Below, in pieces: positions 6,808-20,323 of a stretch of 27,879 nucleotides of DNA. The stretch covers positions 1 to 27,879 of IMG/VR virus record IMGVR_UViG_2648501730_000022, one strand, 5' to 3'. Within the stretch, counting starts at the first letter, position 1; each line of letters opens with the position of its first letter. The translations under genes and the position numbers were made by a program. The DNA comes from a virus. Lineage: Duplodnaviria > Heunggongvirae > Uroviricota > Caudoviricetes. Below the pieces are notes generated by a model. The model saw nothing but the letters and a program-made list of their open reading frames with translations, did no database searches and was not told the DNA's origin.

Positions 6808-7314
6808 TTAAGAGATTTTCAAAGTCTGCTTAGTGCCAGTCTTCTTAATGTTATTGAGTAAAGCAGCCGGAGGATTGCTTAACCAATAGTAATGAAAACC
6901 GCTTTGCATACTGTTATAAGGAACAGTGACAGCAGCACCACCCAAATTAACGGTTATATTCCCCGCTCTACCGTTCTGGAGATATACAGCCATAGTAGGA
7001 GTACCGCCATTGAATTGACCAACGATAACGCCAATCAGACGCCCTACGCCCACGTTTTCGGGGTTCTCCATAGATCCTTTACCGCGCATGTCAGTTACTG
7101 GATAGTTTGAAGCAGTTACACCCCAGTTATTACCCAATGAAGTAGACCACGCAGCAGTAGCTACAACCGTATCCATACCACGACCACACATCGCACTCAT
7201 GTTAGCTGGGCGACTAACCTTTAATGCGTTCATTGCTGCGCTCATCCATCGTTGACCAGTTACAGAAACAGCAGATGACCCGACCCAGCCAGGCTTATTA
7301 ACGACATTCGCCAT
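6808..7314 (-). CDS. Hypothetical tail-associated protein (168 aa)
   Basis: ORF between the tail tube gene and the chaperones; Gly/Asn-rich beta-type composition; no recognisable motif. Confidence 0.35.
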   Translation of the reverse strand: MANVVNKPGWVGSSAVSVTGQRWMSAAMNALKVSRPANMSAMCGRGMDTVVATAAWSTSLGNNWGVTASNYPVTDMRGKGSMENPENVGVGRLIGVIVGQFNGGTPTMAVYLQNGRAGNITVNLGGAAVTVPYNSMQSGFHYYWLSNPPAALLNNIKKTGTKQTLKIS

Positions 7315-7329
7315 TTTGATTACTCCAAT

Positions 7330-7356
7330 AAAAAAGCCCCACCATTAAGGCAGGGC
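7330..7356 (-). terminator. Rho-independent terminator after the tail tube gene
   Basis: Minus-strand RNA GCCCUGCC-UUAAU-GGUGGGGC followed by U6 (plus-strand A-run 7330-7335). Near-identical to the terminator after the capsid gene. Confidence 0.7.
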
Positions 7357-7362
7357 TTATAA

Positions 7363-7482
7363 TTAATCTTTAGCCTTGCGGCTTCGTTTAGCTGTGGCTT
7401 TCGCCGTAACTTCTTCTACTTCTGGAATCACCACCGCTTCATGTTCCGGCTGTGGTTCCGGTTCGGGAAGTTCTTCGTTAGT
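7363..7482 (-). other. In-frame post-TGA extension of the tail tube gene (39 sense codons + TAA)
   Basis: Reading on past TGA at 7483-7485 gives TNEELPEPEPQPEHEAVVIPEVEEVTAKATAKRSRKAKD then TAA at 7363-7365; homologous to the extension after the capsid gene. Confidence 0.5.
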
Positions 7483-7956
7483 TCATCCGGCAGTGAAGAT
7501 TTGCTGTTTCAGCGGAGCACCATCCACCGCGAAGGTAAACTCTTTGGTTACAACTTCTTCATCGCCACCGTTCATAGCAACTTTAGAAATGAAGCCGTTG
7601 AAAGCGGTGCGAATACCAGTCTGTTTTGCTGCGTCAACGTAATATTCTACTTTAATCTGAATACGAGTACCGTCTTCGGCAGCTTTGATCAGTTTTTCAT
7701 GTACCGCATCGCCTGGGATGTAGTTAACGGTCAGAGTCAGATCAGGAACGTTCAGCTTCCCTACCAGTTTACGGTTATACTGAGAAGAGAAGGATTTAAC
7801 TTCTACAGTACCGCGCTCGATACCAGTTTCAGGAAAACCAGCACACTCTTTAATTTCTTCGTAGCTTTCGTGGTCGAGAGCGGTATTAGTGGTGTCCGCG
7901 TGATAGAACAGACTTACCAGACCACCAGTAAAAATATCTTTGAATTGCTGAGACAT
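7483..7956 (-). CDS. Putative major tail tube protein (157 aa)
   Basis: Short protein upstream of the chaperones and tape measure, followed by a strong terminator. ATG at 7954-7956 preceded by a GGGG Shine-Dalgarno. Homologous to the N-terminal ~160 aa of the 277-aa protein at 11595-12428 (shared DIFTG, FP.T, LTL, KA.ED motifs). Confidence 0.5.
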   Translation of the reverse strand: MSQQFKDIFTGGLVSLFYHADTTNTALDHESYEEIKECAGFPETGIERGTVEVKSFSSQYNRKLVGKLNVPDLTLTVNYIPGDAVHEKLIKAAEDGTRIQIKVEYYVDAAKQTGIRTAFNGFISKVAMNGGDEEVVTKEFTFAVDGAPLKQQIFTAG

Positions 7957-11594: not shown

Positions 11595-12428
11595 TTAGTA
11601 TTCGCCGAAATCGATCCGGTCAGTCTTAGCCACTGCGCCAATTTCGCTAGGTGTCGGTTTCTCATTGGTGGAATATACCTTGATCCATTCAGAACGACCG
11701 TTTTCCTGAATATTTCGGACACGTAAACGCGGTGCGCCAGAAGTATTACAGGTTAATTGCCATGCGCCATGCTCATTAGCTTGAAGGTGAATTAATGCTG
11801 TGTCGGTTGAATATGGATTACCGCTAGCAGTTCCCTTGTAAGTTACGAAACGGTTTCCGGCTAATGCCTCGCTGTCAATCGGACCCGTGAATGGATTTAC
11901 ACCAGCACCCAAACCAAAATCACCCTGACGTAAGATCCGGCCTTCGGTAGCAATACCCCTTGCCAAAATCCCGCCATCTGGTTCAAGTTTAAATTCCAGT
12001 GTTACAGCTTTGTTATCACTACCACGGGTTTTATGTGATGTGACGTAAGCATCGAATATACAAAAGTACCCTGTGTTAGCAGCACTATAGCCAGAGTTCA
12101 CAACATAGAACATACGGAAGCGTAAAGGTGTTTTATCCTCTACCGCTTTCATCAACATTGCTTGATGTTCATCGTCAAGAACACGGTTTAATGTGAGTGT
12201 TGTCGGTTCCAGTCTACGATAACCAGCAAGTTTCCCCGTAGCGTCCTGATCGTACTCTTCCAGAGTTTCTATCTCTGTGGATTCGGTTAGCGTAGGGAAT
12301 GCTGCGATGTTCTCCATAGAACTAAAGCTAGGATCGAAAAAGTCGACCTGATTGTCTATCTGGTTAGAGATCGACACTTCAACATGTGATCCAGTGAAAA
12401 TATCTAAGTTATCTTGTGTAATATTCAT
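11595..12428 (-). CDS. Tail-tube-like paralog with extra ~115-aa C-terminal domain (277 aa)
   Basis: N-terminal ~160 aa homologous to the 157-aa tail tube protein; unique C-terminal domain. Confidence 0.45.
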   Translation of the reverse strand: MNITQDNLDIFTGSHVEVSISNQIDNQVDFFDPSFSSMENIAAFPTLTESTEIETLEEYDQDATGKLAGYRRLEPTTLTLNRVLDDEHQAMLMKAVEDKTPLRFRMFYVVNSGYSAANTGYFCIFDAYVTSHKTRGSDNKAVTLEFKLEPDGGILARGIATEGRILRQGDFGLGAGVNPFTGPIDSEALAGNRFVTYKGTASGNPYSTDTALIHLQANEHGAWQLTCNTSGAPRLRVRNIQENGRSEWIKVYSTNEKPTPSEIGAVAKTDRIDFGEY

Positions 12429-13164: not shown

Positions 13165-13190
13165 AAAAAAGCCCCACCGTTAGGCAGGGC
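13165..13190 (-). terminator. Rho-independent terminator after the capsid gene
   Basis: Minus-strand RNA GCCCUGCC-UAAC-GGUGGGGC followed by U6 (plus-strand A-run 13165-13170). Confidence 0.7.
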
Positions 13191-13196
13191 TAATTA

Positions 13197-13325
13197 TTAT
13201 TCTTTAGTTTTACGTTGTTTTTTAACTGTGGCTTTCGCCGTAACCGTCTGAGATTCTTCTTCCTGAGATGGAATCAGATTTTCTTCCCCCAAATCGGGGG
13301 AAGGTTCAGATGGTTCTACGTTAGT
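13197..13325 (-). other. In-frame post-TGA extension of the capsid gene (42 sense codons + TAATAA)
   Basis: Reading on past TGA at 13326-13328 gives TNVEPSEPSPDLGEENLIPSQEEESQTVTAKATVKKQRKTKE then TAA TAA (13194-13199). Confidence 0.5.
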
Positions 13326-15332
13326 TCATTCAGCGGAGATGTGAAGAACTTTCAGAGCTTCCGGCTGAACTACGGTGAAGTCCAGGTCTACCCAGATACG
13401 CGGAACGATAGCAGACTGTGCGCGGTAAGTGGTGTCGTCCATATCCAGTTCCAGACCACCCCATTCACCGATCATGATACCGGAGAAGTCACCCAGAACG
13501 ATGTGGTCTGCCGGAATAACGCCAGAAGTAACTACATCGTAACCAGCCAGTTTGCCGTTTTCGATGATATAACCGGAAACGCCGTTATCTTTCAGGGTAG
13601 ATTCCAGTTCAGCAGCAGTTGCACCGCTCATTGCAAACTTGATGGACTGTGCCGGAACGCCAGCGTCGGTCAGTGCTGCAATTTCTTTCAGGAAGTCTTT
13701 GTAGCTAAAAGCGGCTTTCTTAGTAACGCGACCACCGTCTACCAGTTGCTTAACCAGACCTTTCGGACCGCGCTCGTTGTCTTTGTCAGACAGAATCAGT
13801 TGTTCCAGTTTGATCCGAACAGATTTGTTAATGTGATCAGTGATCAGGGTAGCAATATTCGGAACAGTTTTCAGAGACTGACGGCTGATCGGGTTGCCAC
13901 CAGCAAAAGTTTTCGGAGCCATTTTCACGTTTTCAAAGCTAGCCTTCGATTCGGGGGCACTTCCATTTTCATCAACAAAACCAAAGGCTTCGACGCTGGA
14001 AGCAGTCATTTTTGGTACTGCAATCGGGCTATTCAGACCAGACAGAACAGTCACACCCAGACGACCCAGAACAGACTGTGGAAGCAGCATTTCTACATAG
14101 GATTCGGTCAGCAGTTTTTCGTCGGTTACAGCGGTCAGAGTAGCTTTGGTGTTACCTTCGGAAGCAGCACGCAGAGCAGCAGCCGGAACGAATACAGAGC
14201 CACCGCGAGCAGCACGACCACGCTGCATTGCAGCACCAGCAGCCATAGCGGAATATTCAGCTTCGTTAGCGCCGAGCACGTCGCCATCTACCAGGGAGCG
14301 GATTACGTTATTAAGATCGAAAGTTTTTTCCATGATTTGTTCCTTATTAATTTGTTCGTTATTACGTTGAGCATTGGTAATGTTATTTAGTGCCTTAGTG
14401 CGGAATGCTTCCGGCGTCATATCTTTAACTGCCAATGCGCGTTCTAATTCTTCGTCGTTAATATTTAACTCACGAGCGATTGCTCGGATTTCTTCTTCGT
14501 CTTCTTCGGAACGTTCAGCCACTTCTTCGATTTTTTCTTCTTCAACCGGAGCGGCTTCACGTTCTTCTTTTACTTCTTCTGTTTCCCGAACAGTTGAACT
14601 ATCATCATCAACACTTTCAGGATGTTTAGCGTCTTTTCCGTCTTCGAGATTTTCATCTTCTTTATTCTCTTCAACTTGGCGCTCTTGAGTTTCTTCTACT
14701 TCCGGTTCTTTATTTTCTTCTACCGGAGTTTCTTCAACCTGAGCGGGTTCTTGTTCTTCTTTGATTTCTTCGATTTGTTCTTTAGTCATATCGCGTTTAG
14801 CCTCCAAATTAACTGTGATAGTATTTAGAGAGCGATTCAGACCCACGGTGTCGTCTGCGGGAACAGACACCCATGAAACCTCGTGAGGAATCCATTTAGT
14901 AACAATCAATTGTCCTTTGGTGTAGTCGATGTGATATTCTTTAATGTCATAACCGACAGAAATTTTTTCCATCGTACCTTCAATGACTTTATTACGAATA
15001 TCATTAGCCAAAGTGCCATGCTTAGAGAATTTAACCAGAGCACGACCTACGTTATCCGCATCGATTCGAGCGTTACAAACGACACCAATATGATTATCGA
15101 AATTATGATTGAACAGCAACGGAGCGTTATTATTCAGACGAGACAGATCAACCGCTTCCGGTGTATGTACCAGAATTTCATCTAATACCACCATTTCTTG
15201 ATTTTGCTCATCCCAGAATTGGCGCTGATAAGGCTGTTCACTGGAGAAAGCAATTTCAAATTCGTATTGATCATTCTGCCCTTCGTTAATAACTCCACCG
15301 TAACCGTTAAGATCGCGGCGAAATTTAAGCAT
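13326..15332 (-). CDS. Fused prohead protease (HK97/S78-like) / scaffold-like acidic coiled coil / major capsid protein (668 aa)
   Basis: N-terminal ~170 aa carry a His (HNFDNHIG) and the ExSxVxxPA signature (HEVSWVSVPADD) typical of HK97-family prohead proteases; residues ~180-300 are Glu/Lys-rich and helical; the C-terminal ~350 aa look like an HK97-fold capsid domain. Confidence 0.7.
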   Translation of the reverse strand: MLKFRRDLNGYGGVINEGQNDQYEFEIAFSSEQPYQRQFWDEQNQEMVVLDEILVHTPEAVDLSRLNNNAPLLFNHNFDNHIGVVCNARIDADNVGRALVKFSKHGTLANDIRNKVIEGTMEKISVGYDIKEYHIDYTKGQLIVTKWIPHEVSWVSVPADDTVGLNRSLNTITVNLEAKRDMTKEQIEEIKEEQEPAQVEETPVEENKEPEVEETQERQVEENKEDENLEDGKDAKHPESVDDDSSTVRETEEVKEEREAAPVEEEKIEEVAERSEEDEEEIRAIARELNINDEELERALAVKDMTPEAFRTKALNNITNAQRNNEQINKEQIMEKTFDLNNVIRSLVDGDVLGANEAEYSAMAAGAAMQRGRAARGGSVFVPAAALRAASEGNTKATLTAVTDEKLLTESYVEMLLPQSVLGRLGVTVLSGLNSPIAVPKMTASSVEAFGFVDENGSAPESKASFENVKMAPKTFAGGNPISRQSLKTVPNIATLITDHINKSVRIKLEQLILSDKDNERGPKGLVKQLVDGGRVTKKAAFSYKDFLKEIAALTDAGVPAQSIKFAMSGATAAELESTLKDNGVSGYIIENGKLAGYDVVTSGVIPADHIVLGDFSGIMIGEWGGLELDMDDTTYRAQSAIVPRIWVDLDFTVVQPEALKVLHISAE

Positions 15333-20064: not shown

Positions 20065-20098
20065 AGGTGAACATTCACTTTAATTTGGAGAAATGACT

Positions 20099-20323
20099 AT
20101 GACTACTAAAGCTACTCGCGGTCGTCCTGCCCGTTTTAATCGTGAACAACTGGCAGAGATTGTAAAAGCGTACTATCAAGCACCGAAAGGTAAAGAGAAC
20201 AAAGAACGGGTATTAAATGAGCATGGCTTATCTATAGCCCAGCTATACAAATCCCTACATAAAGTTGATTTGAAATTCTTTGTTCAGGTTGACGGTGAAA
20301 TGGTAGAAGCAACAGGAAATTGA
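20099..20323 (+). CDS. Small DNA-binding protein with RGRP (AT-hook-like) N-terminus and HTH, 74 aa
   Basis: Start moved to the second ATG (20099), which has a GGAG Shine-Dalgarno ~8 nt upstream. Paralog of the 23335-23514 product (shared RP.(R/K)F.RE..(A/V)(E/D)I.K). Confidence 0.5.
   Translation: MTTKATRGRPARFNREQLAEIVKAYYQAPKGKENKERVLNEHGLSIAQLYKSLHKVDLKFFVQVDGEMVEATGN

Follow-up and report, generated by a model that had tools for sequence, protein, structure and literature searches.

The question raised by this locus is whether the TGA at the end of the major tail tube gene of a temperate E. coli siphophage simply closes that gene, or whether a minority of ribosomes pass it to make an extended virion protein. 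The gene lies on the minus strand (7486..7956) of the window, i.e. the whole stretch of 27,879 nucleotides that was analysed, and encodes 157 residues ending in ...QQIFTAG. Its product matches PHROG 158, 'major tail protein' (E 3e-21), and is a borderline match to the Pfam family Phage_TTP_11 (28.3 bits, with a cut-off of 28.4); a Foldseek search with its AlphaFold model retrieves the structures 8k36 and 7t2e of the lambda tail tube (E about 1e-6), as well as 2k4q. By sequence and predicted fold, the product is assigned as a lambda-like tail tube protein, equivalent to the N-domain of gpV.

The stop codon of the tube gene (7483..7485, minus strand), a putative leaky one, is preceded by GGA and followed by A (TGA-ACT). 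The same frame then stays open for 39 codons, TNEELPEPEPQPEHEAVVIPEVEEVTAKATAKRSRKAKD (7366..7482, minus), which lead from an acidic Pro-rich linker through a VTAKAT core to a basic tail, before it is closed by a TAA (7363..7365, minus) lying 4-6 nt upstream of the stem of an intrinsic terminator. The terminator (7330..7358, minus), AAGCCCTGCC-TTAAT-GGTGGGGCTT plus a T-run, has 10 pairs, 6 of them GC, and comprises the stem arms GCCCTGCC (7356-7349) and GGTGGGGC (7343-7336) around the loop TTAAT, with the T-run at 7335-7330; it ranks first among the terminator-like sites found on the minus strand in a scan of the window. The VTAKAT core is encoded by a 19-mer, GTTACGGCGAAAGCCACAG (7392..7410, minus), that contains a GGC-GAAA-GCC mini hairpin.

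A homologous module follows the capsid gene (13329..15332, minus), the 668-residue product of which ends in ...HISAE. This ORF holds two Pfam domains, Peptidase_S78 (E 1e-9) and Phage_capsid (E 4e-26), with PF04586 spanning residues 40-162 and PF05065 residues 410-664, and its product matches PHROG 617, 'major head protein' (E 2e-94), as befits an HK97-type major capsid protein fused to an S78 prohead protease. Its putative leaky stop is likewise TGA-ACT (13326..13328, minus) and is followed by a 42-codon in-frame extension, TNVEPSEPSPDLGEENLIPSQEEESQTVTAKATVKKQRKTKE (13200..13325, minus), a double stop, TAA TAA (13194..13199, minus), and an intrinsic terminator, AGCCCTGCC-TAAC-GGTGGGGCT plus a T-run (13165..13191, minus), which reads GCCCTGCC-TAAC-GGTGGGGC-TTTTTT over 13190-13165, has the same arms as the tube terminator and ranks second in the window scan. 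The second copy of the 19-mer GTTACGGCGAAAGCCACAG lies within the capsid extension (13226..13244, minus). The tube and capsid modules can be aligned from the TGA through the T-run and are identical in TGAACTAACG, in the 19-nt core and in both terminator arms. The original prediction, made from the bare sequence of this window, had described a TGA, 39 in-frame codons, a TAA and a near-copy of the capsid terminator behind the tube gene, and the sequence reads exactly so.

A single open frame of 39 or 42 codons is unremarkable (P = 0.18 and 0.07, respectively, in mononucleotide shuffles); since such a frame is not rare by itself, its significance comes from comparative data. The comparison set comprised 57 copies from relatives (26 tube and 31 capsid), representing 32 distinct DNA versions. 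In all 57 the stop is TGA followed by A, never a sense codon, TAA or TAG; the tube copies all have TGA-ACT (26/26) and the capsid copies TGA-A (31/31), and further copies outside this count also carry TGA-A. The codon preceding the TGA is GGA, GGT, GCT, TCT, GAA, GAG, GAC or GAT. The extensions are 36, 39 or 41 codons long in the tube genes and 28, 42, 43, 44 or 45 codons in the capsid genes, the frame being open in every one; all extensions (28-45 codons across both genes) have lengths divisible by three, and a hand count from the alignment implies at least 8 indel events, giving a chance probability of (1/3)^8 = 1.5e-4. Frame 0 is open in 32/32 versions, whereas frames +1 and +2 are closed in 32/32. 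Synonymous changes account for 37% of the minimal changes in frame 0; the figures for the two remaining frames are 23% and 22%, and neutrality predicts ~23%. The excess in frame 0 (binomial P = 0.002, Fisher P = 0.012) has no equivalent in the other frames.

The encoded peptide retains recognizable features as the DNA diverges. 'NEELPE' is kept across differences in its Leu (CTT/TTG) and Pro (CCC/CCG) codons, and the tail stays basic despite nucleotide divergence, as in KRSRKAKD, KKQRKTKE, KKERKTKAK, KKVGRPPKAK and KRGRKPKE. The cassette is found in frame behind three host genes, namely the tube gene and a pair of capsid alleles with only 39% identity to each other. In the structural block of the window 18 of the 20 genes end with TAA, the capsid and tube genes being the sole ones to end with TGA. 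Taken together, these observations argue that the extension changes over time in the manner of a coding sequence read in the upstream gene's frame, and the retention of the stop, never replaced by a sense codon, suggests that both products are needed. In the extension, synonymous and nonsynonymous changes stand at 12:16 in the tube gene and at 16:32 in the capsid gene, and amino-acid constraint on the peptide itself is weak. The original prediction had proposed that two unrelated virion proteins share a homologous post-stop peptide made by readthrough rather than lying in a chance open frame, and had staked this on the frame being conserved in relatives. The frame is kept in all of them, and the invariant TGA-A, the lengths in multiples of three, the confinement of the open frame and of the synonymous excess to frame 0, and the in-frame junctions on three host genes strongly support this core of the prediction.

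Carriers of the prophage include E. coli strains 14EC029, MEI003 and PSJ-22, and two sets of complete E. coli genomes, 52 and 22 in number, contain copies. The two cassettes are not equally widespread. The capsid cassette occurs in all E. coli members examined and the tube cassette in one tube-allele lineage only, and because of this limited range the tube cassette was probably copied from the capsid gene. The tube copy looks secondary. Tube alleles that are about 60% or about 73% identical lack the cassette, and in Salmonella prophages it is missing from both genes; these relatives manage without the extension, which is therefore dispensable for virion building. In a 16-mer scan of IMG/VR, the cassette was confined to these two gene ends, other matches being due to chance, and the peptide is present in no other protein among 1.84 billion representatives, bar one mis-called 33-aa ORF within the extension. 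A terminator-anchored metagenome scan produced mostly chance matches and one additional contig with both cassettes, and a scan of species-representative genome contigs produced no relatives. Among cultured phages there was no near-DNA match to the window; the closest proteins, at 38-43% amino-acid identity, are those of Escherichia phage DCP80, the homologues of both genes there having a TAA stop and no in-frame extension. The cassette usually moves along with its terminator.

On the basis of these sequence comparisons, we put the probability that the extended capsid and tube proteins are translated by UGA readthrough at roughly two in three. The portable 3' cassette of this temperate E. coli siphophage family would consist of TGA-A, 28-45 codons, TAA and an intrinsic terminator. 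The majority of ribosomes would terminate at the UGA, while a minority would insert Trp by means of near-cognate Trp-tRNA(Trp), through the ordinary UGA leak of E. coli. The candidate stops have the UGA-then-A context expected for this: UGA is the leakiest stop, with A at +4 especially favouring misreading by tRNA-Trp in E. coli, and UAA is the stop preferred by highly expressed genes (PMC5289835), while Trp-tRNA competes with RF2 at UGA (PMC10570021). With Trp at the stop, the predicted junctions are ...QQIFTAG-W-TNEELPEPEPQPEHEAVVIPEVEEVTAK in the tube and ...VLHISAE-W-TNVEPSEPSPDLGEENLIPSQEEESQTVTAK in the capsid protein; the readthrough products would gain a disordered tail with an acidic Pro-rich spacer, VTAKAT and a Lys/Arg-rich end, and the virion would contain a few tagged capsid and a few tagged tube subunits. 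No suppressor tRNA was found in the window, and the only tRNA call in a complete prophage copy is a dubious 91-nt 'tRNA-Glu' within a CDS. A readthrough-stimulating or SECIS-like structure common to all variants was sought and none was found: the hairpins, 15-22 nt past the stop, differ from one extension type to the next, and the fold of the tube extension is not significant (z = -0.8).

Among the alternatives, the one that survives best, although we consider it unlikely, is that the act of translation is selected rather than the peptide. A readthrough ribosome arriving at the TAA 4-6 nt before the terminator stem would cover its 5' arm and let RNA polymerase continue, such that the frequency of readthrough would set the step-down in expression to the low-copy downstream genes, among them head-tail connectors, gp38, TAC and TMP. 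Much of the evidence is compatible with this regulatory reading as well. The distance from extension stop to stem is indeed fixed and very short in both genes and in the relatives, the two strongest terminators on the strand follow the genes that need the greatest excess over their downstream neighbours, cassette and terminator normally travel together, and the frame is strictly kept though amino-acid constraint is weak. A spacer ORF, however, would need neither the acidic Pro-rich then Lys/Arg-rich pattern nor NEELPE and VTAKAT, all of which persist in diverged variants, and a pure spacer has no need of a synonymous excess in frame 0. Moreover, in E. coli E275a the tube extension precedes another terminator, and relatives that lack the extension have a normal TAA 9-19 nt from the terminator with downstream genes that are evidently expressed.

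The conservation of the 19-mer bears on a second alternative, in which this stretch acts, without translation, as an element of the 3' UTR (an RNA hairpin, a 3'-UTR-derived small RNA, an anchor for recombination or a site bound by a phage factor) and the open frame is incidental. The synonymous sites of GTTACGGCGAAAGCCACAG, the best-conserved part of the extension, are unchanged in almost all copies of both genes, with flanks that vary, and the changes that it does show are 0 synonymous and 4-6 nonsynonymous; this points to a constraint at the RNA or DNA level, beside or instead of coding. The core can be folded as AGUU-AC-GGC-GAAA-GCC-AC-AGCU, one variant having a compensatory change from C-G to A-U and another a U.G wobble, and a stable hairpin, CUUCCCCC-GAUUU-GGGGGAAG (13283..13303, minus; 22 nt past the UGA; fold z-score -3.1 to -3.6), lies within the long capsid extension but in neither the tube extension nor the short capsid variant. 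Against this alternative, the core hairpin does not differ from chance in shuffles (94.8% paired cells compared with 94.4%, and a single compensatory event), and an Rfam search of the window gave no match. Nor would such an element account for indels that are all multiples of three, a frame 0 that is open in every version with the other frames always closed, a synonymous excess in frame 0 alone, or a junction that keeps the frame of each of three upstream genes. Coding and an RNA element may occur together, but the latter alone cannot explain the frame data, and as the full explanation we consider it improbable.

Translation of the region does not by itself imply a fusion, and a separate small peptide made from an internal start is conceivable: one gene caller reports a 33-aa ORF, MGEENLIPPQEEESQTVKAKATAKKVGRPPKAK, from a TTG inside the capsid extension, and GTG GTG occurs in frame within the tube extension. 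These start codons are, however, not conserved, being absent from the short capsid and the 36-codon tube forms and with TCG in place of TTG in one variant; by eye, no Shine-Dalgarno sequence precedes the candidate starts, the TTG sits in a hairpin stem, and conservation starts at the first codon after the TGA (T/N-N-x-E-E/P), all of which make this reading very improbable. The view that the TGA arose by nonsense mutation, in a prophage gene now in decay and formerly with a constitutive C-terminal tail, finds some encouragement in the Edwardsiella-type relative L037, the tube protein of which has such a tail (...VIPEAVAAKEK), but is hardly credible given TGA in all 57 copies, in diverged alleles of two genes and in many strains, with no fused form found. 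Searches for a fused homologue, using a query of capsid, W and extension and using the extension alone against 1.84 billion representatives, returned none. The 198-aa protein P0001, which has W at the stop, was rejected as a true fusion and is a gene-calling artefact; its contig carries a genuine TGA, so the caller must have used a code in which TGA is Trp. Finally, although the UGA is in frame and E. coli has the Sec machinery, selenocysteine insertion can be set aside almost entirely, as there is no conserved hairpin at the SECIS position (about 11 nt past the UGA), the sequences there differing among the three extension types, and as the hairpins that are present begin 15-22 nt past the UGA, share no loop sequence and do not stay intact in all tube variants; Rfam gives no match.

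Comparison of the proposed UGA readthrough with known systems reveals parallels with several phages. One is the A1 protein of Q-beta (Qubevirus), where the gene for the major capsid protein is closed by a leaky UGA, beyond which the frame continues as an extension; the Q-beta coat stop has been described as leaky (PMC8880383). In the Q-beta-group genome NC_001890, the annotated readthrough site is UAC-UGA-ACU, i.e. the same UGA-ACU as here, followed by a Pro-rich flexible linker, and the record notes a readthrough of about 5%. The extended Q-beta protein makes up a small part of the virion, being produced at a few per cent; the corresponding form here is predicted from sequence. The two differ, Q-beta being an ssRNA levivirus with one such gene and a 196-aa extension that is a folded, essential domain, whereas the present phages are dsDNA temperate siphophages with two such genes, a disordered peptide of 28-45 aa that is dispensable in relatives, and a terminator within the cassette.

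Among dsDNA phages, C-terminal extension of a fraction of the capsid or tail protein by frameshifting is known in a few cases (PMC5009743). Listeria PSA, A118 and A500 and Lactobacillus A2 make long forms of both their major capsid and major tail proteins by frameshifting (PMC5009743) and so resemble the present phages in having recoding at the 3' ends of the capsid and tail tube genes of one phage, giving minor, C-terminally extended forms. They differ in that their ribosomes shift to the +1 or -1 frame at slippery or CCC_UGA sites and in that many of their extensions are Ig-like domains, as opposed to frame 0 and the same short peptide, without detectable fold, on both proteins. A frameshift extension of the PSA, A118 and A2 type was rejected for the present locus, as no variant has frame +1 or +2 open and CCC never precedes the TGA. 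T7 (gene 10A/10B) and T3 also add a recoded C-terminal extension to a small share of their HK97-fold capsid protein (PMC5009743), although these are podophages that use a -1 frameshift and have no matching extension of a tail protein. Ig-like modules recombine between capsid and tail proteins, sometimes behind a recoding site (PMC5009743), and are thus similar to the present cassette in that the same type of module is found on both. An Ig-like, FN3 or BIG2 fold was nonetheless rejected for the extension, which has 28-45 aa, no such Pfam match and, in AlphaFold models, pLDDT values of 40-54 and no secondary structure, with the tube extension predicted to be disordered. In lambda gpV an accessory C-terminal module follows a tube domain of ~156 residues, but is a constitutive, folded Ig domain, in contrast to a short charged peptide behind a stop codon.

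As to what the peptide might do, the tube domain stops where the external Ig-like domain of lambda gpV starts, so the tag would most likely project outward; it would then lie on the outside of the particle, putatively binding something polyanionic. A surface-binding role for the tail is a tentative proposal, which we would back at less than even odds, and surface display as the function of the peptide is a guess. The C terminus of T7 10B is exposed at the surface and is the basis of T7 display. One variant tail end, ..KKVGRPPKAK, looks like an AT-hook. With the AT-hook family PF02178, the variants ..KKVGRPPKAK and ..KKAGRPPKAKE score 14.2-14.7 bits (cut-off 17.4, E 0.03-0.04), and no match is obtained with KRSRKAKD and KKQRKTKE, the tails encoded in the window itself.

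A more far-reaching scheme, which we regard as doubtful, would make the cassette a transplantable readthrough tag for any abundant virion protein, placing polyanion-binding tails (for DNA, LPS or matrix) outside head and tail; the level of host UGA leak would set their numbers, the terminator, weakened by the readthrough ribosome, would set downstream stoichiometry, and the same 120-165 nt would hold, in the invariant 19-nt GNRA hairpin, a third signal that acts at the RNA level. The level of UGA leak has been reported to vary with growth phase, temperature and cAMP and, if UGA readthrough is indeed used, virion composition would be tied to the state of host translational fidelity.

A full-text literature search yielded no account of structural genes of dsDNA phages being subject to stop-codon readthrough, an absence that is not proof. 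If correct, the present proposal would be a case of conserved stop-codon readthrough in a dsDNA phage, acting on both of its most abundant virion proteins by way of one shared mobile cassette. Such a cassette would offer a compact natural system for studying what phages gain from having a few 'different' subunits in each particle, and could be put directly to use for low-copy display on an E. coli siphophage. Extensions of this type escape annotation pipelines; PGAP, for example, annotates the capsid and tube genes with gaps of 150-170 nt behind them and marks no recoding.

The tube ORF (7956..7486, - strand; 157 aa, ending ...QQIFTAG) encodes a lambda-like tail tube protein, as indicated by a match to PHROG 158 'major tail protein' (E 3e-21), a borderline match to Pfam Phage_TTP_11 (28.3 bits against a cut-off of 28.4) and a match of its AlphaFold model to the lambda gpV tube domain (E about 1e-6). 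The gene is in its canonical place, upstream of the tail assembly chaperone and tape-measure genes. By reading of the sequence, its first stop is TGA (7485-7483), followed in the same frame by 39 sense codons, TNEELPEPEPQPEHEAVVIPEVEEVTAKATAKRSRKAKD, and TAA (7365-7363); a terminator scan places a strong intrinsic terminator at 7358-7330, all on the - strand. The TGA, extension and TAA are as the original prediction described them, and its coordinates match the sequence. A T-even-type gp38-like adhesin gene (6808-7314, - strand; Pfam Gp38_N, PHROG 1121) is inserted between the tube gene and the chaperone genes, within a lambda-like siphophage tail module; in relatives with other tube alleles it is absent from that spot, three small ORFs following the fibre gene instead (L028, a relative's locus).

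The capsid gene (15332..13329, - strand), a 668-aa S78 protease/HK97-type capsid fusion ending ...HISAE, likewise stops at TGA (13328-13326), after which come an in-frame extension, TNVEPSEPSPDLGEENLIPSQEEESQTVTAKATVKKQRKTKE, then TAA TAA and a terminator. Pairwise comparison aligns the tube and capsid 3' modules from the TGA through the T-run, with TGAACTAACG, the 19-mer GTTACGGCGAAAGCCACAG and the terminator stem arms identical in both, which bears out the claim that the two genes carry homologous extensions and near-identical terminators.

One open frame of ~40 codons falls short of significance by itself (P = 0.18 and 0.07 against shuffles), so it is comparative data that must decide between chance and coding. 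We compared 26 tube copies and 31 capsid copies, comprising 32 distinct DNA versions. Every copy has TGA as its first stop, with A as the next base (TGA-ACT or TGA-AAT), and the extensions are 36, 39 or 41 codons long in the tube gene and 28, 42, 43, 44 or 45 in the capsid gene, i.e. every indel is a multiple of three. Frame 0, that of the upstream gene continued across the TGA, is open in 32/32 versions and both shifted frames contain stops in 32/32. Of the minimal changes, 37% are synonymous when read in frame 0, compared with 23% and 22% when the frame is shifted and a neutral expectation of about 23% (binomial P = 0.002; Fisher P = 0.012). The motif NEELPE, common to the tube and short capsid extensions, is encoded differently in the two (Leu CTT vs TTG, Pro CCC vs CCG), and the C-terminal segment is always Lys/Arg-rich despite wide nucleotide divergence. 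The junction is in frame with three different upstream genes, the tube gene and two capsid alleles that are only 39% identical, and in the window's structural block 18 of the 20 genes stop at TAA, TGA being confined to the capsid and tube genes. These comparisons lead us to conclude that the extension is evolving as protein-coding DNA, read in frame with the upstream gene through a stop that is kept deliberately. The comparative evidence thus strongly supports the proposal of readthrough coding rather than a chance open frame for both capsid and tube, including its expectation that the frame be conserved in relatives.

Regulatory coupling is a less likely rival reading, in which a readthrough ribosome that stops at the TAA of the extension would cover the 5' arm of the terminator and could let polymerase through. 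All copies place the stop of the extension just 4-6 nt from the terminator stem, and such coupling would account for strict frame-keeping alongside weak amino-acid constraint; however, it leaves the conserved composition, the motifs and the excess of synonymous change unaccounted for.

An RNA or DNA element may lie at the 19-mer (7392-7410 and 13226-13244, - strand), where it could coexist with coding. Synonymous sites in this island are invariant in nearly all copies of both genes, both flanks vary, and zero synonymous changes were seen. It can fold as a GNRA hairpin, AGUU-AC-GGC-GAAA-GCC-AC-AGCU, for which there is one natural compensatory change, C-G to A-U (GGC/GCC to GGA/TCC) in GGA-GAAA-TCC of E. 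coli STEC1575 (L111 and L003 being the loci given for the island), accompanied by two amino-acid changes, and one U.G wobble change (GGT-GAAA-GCC in L003). Nevertheless, pair counts for the hairpin are no different from those in shuffles, and an element of this kind cannot by itself account for the frame data; the island may act as an RNA signal or mark where crossover takes place in module shuffling. Elsewhere, the extension types differ in the hairpin that they carry at roughly the same position. The capsid extension contains a stable 8 bp hairpin, CUUCCCCC-GAUUU-GGGGGAAG (13283-13303, - strand; fold z-score -3.1 to -3.6), 22 nt after the UGA. In the short capsid variant the hairpin is CCGGAA-GAAA-UUCCGG, 15 nt after the UGA, and the tube extension has just a weak CCGG...CCGG pairing, which is disrupted in some variants. 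Specific tests speak against internal initiation of a separate peptide, selenocysteine at the UGA (no common SECIS-like hairpin) and a nonsense-mutated tail (TGA in all 57 copies; the 198-aa 'fused' tube protein P0001, from locus L041, is an artefact of TGA=Trp calling on an 842-nt metagenome contig).

With regard to mechanism, there are no tRNA genes or Rfam matches in the window and no suppressor tRNA in a whole prophage copy, and no hairpin at a SECIS-like or stimulator-like distance common to all variants was found. The most economical mechanism is normal misreading of UGA by the near-cognate Trp-tRNA(Trp), which competes with RF2 at this codon; leakage at UGA reportedly varies with temperature and cAMP (PMC10570021). 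Readthrough of a few per cent would give each particle a few tagged subunits of the capsid and a few of the tube, the number of which would, given such variation in leakage, track host physiology.

A parallel is Q-beta A1, which arises by UGA readthrough of a capsid gene, with equal stop context: in the coat gene of a Q-beta-group reference record, the six bases at the annotated readthrough site (about 5%) are likewise UGA-ACU, and a Pro-rich linker follows (PMC8880383). Frameshift-derived long capsid or major tail forms are known from Listeria PSA, A118 and A500, Lactobacillus A2 and T3/T7 (PMC5009743); their apparent purpose is the same, but the cassette falls outside that class because its extension is in frame, nor is the extension an Ig-like domain. 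In the literature searched, we found no dsDNA phage described as having conserved stop-codon readthrough in its structural genes.

The source of the window is a temperate phage of roughly 34 kb, a copy of which (about 34 kb) is present in E. coli 14EC029 (L042, NZ_CP024141.1 about 2587365-2621750). That copy is integrated in hicB, splitting this antitoxin gene, has a large serine recombinase gene at one end and carries an inserted IS3 element. Among 5426 complete E. coli genomes, 52 have the capsid cassette and 22 the tube cassette, and there are dozens of related contigs in IMG/VR. The capsid cassette is present in every E. coli family member examined, whereas the tube cassette is confined to tube alleles at least 83% identical to that of the window; alleles at about 73% or about 60% identity stop at TAA (or TAA TAA) immediately ahead of another terminator, and the capsid gene in those genomes retains TGA and the extension. 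Given this distribution, the simplest view is that the tube cassette was copied from that of the capsid gene, as a rule together with its terminator. Linker and tail types occur in several combinations, the tube-type tail KRGRKPKE is found on two capsid copies, and in strain E275a the tube extension precedes the other terminator type; these mixtures imply that the module has been shuffled by recombination, apparently with crossover around the invariant 19-mer.

Salmonella relatives (57-62% identity) have TAA stops and lack the extension in both genes, as does Escherichia phage DCP80, the only cultured relative. The cassette-free Salmonella prophages (L106-L109) have short constitutive basic tails (capsid ...KVEASKAK, tube ...PASGLRK), so that a basic C terminus on the two proteins may predate the readthrough cassette; Providencia has similar constitutive tails. 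In an Edwardsiella-type relative (L037 1754-1840; IMG/VR UViG 2823530352_000002) the capsid gene ends ...RLVKQG-TGA, an extension-like peptide, VIPTGREEVSVKSGRKPKTDN, is open across the stop in the -1 frame, the +1 frame likewise ends in a basic stretch, and the tube protein has a constitutive tail, ...PDAPLATYHMNVIPEAVAAKEK; this single sequence may be a frameshift-accessed counterpart of the cassette. In DCP80 (L001 6567-6700, PQ671644.1) the capsid TAA is followed by a hairpin, GGAGAGAGCAATCTCTCC, and a small ORF, MSLGAEALDAAPVKKSKSASG, containing the A-run GTTAAAAAAAGC; the capsid frame holds a basic peptide, ..LKKARARRVKSTD, interrupted by stops, and then a terminator. This region may represent a relative of the cassette that has degenerated or is expressed in another way. 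The DCP80 record is filed under Straboviridae despite its lambda-like siphophage structural module.

As to what the peptide might do, it consists of a spacer that is acidic and rich in proline and then a basic end, and the tube extension is predicted to be disordered (pLDDT 40-54, no secondary structure in the AlphaFold model). In the structure match it starts where the external Ig-like domain of lambda gpV starts, and by homology it should thus project outward from the tube. The C-terminal extension of T7 10B is exposed outward, and by analogy we assume the same of the capsid extension. Variants ending ..KKVGRPPKAK give a sub-threshold AT-hook match (E 0.03-0.04); the window's own two basic tails give none. 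The extension might be an 'adhesion' tag that binds polyanions weakly, which is a reasonable guess and nothing beyond that, and the display function originally proposed is speculative. The window also encodes a 277-aa paralogue of the tail tube protein (11598-12428, - strand; E 1e-14, 30% identity over 163 aa), lengthened by a C-terminal domain of about 115 aa. Its gene is directly upstream of that for a 1166-aa tail fibre, which has a gp34-like trimerisation domain as well as an S74 chaperone; the paralogue may form a ring like that of the tube, to which the side fibre is anchored.

In RefSeq/PGAP annotation the capsid and tube genes are followed by unannotated gaps of 150-170 nt, and P0050 is an artefactual 33-aa ORF called from a TTG within the capsid extension. 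Stop usage over the window's ORFs is extremely TAA-biased (22/25), the third TGA stop being that of an ORF at 20093-20323 (+ strand), with T as the next base.
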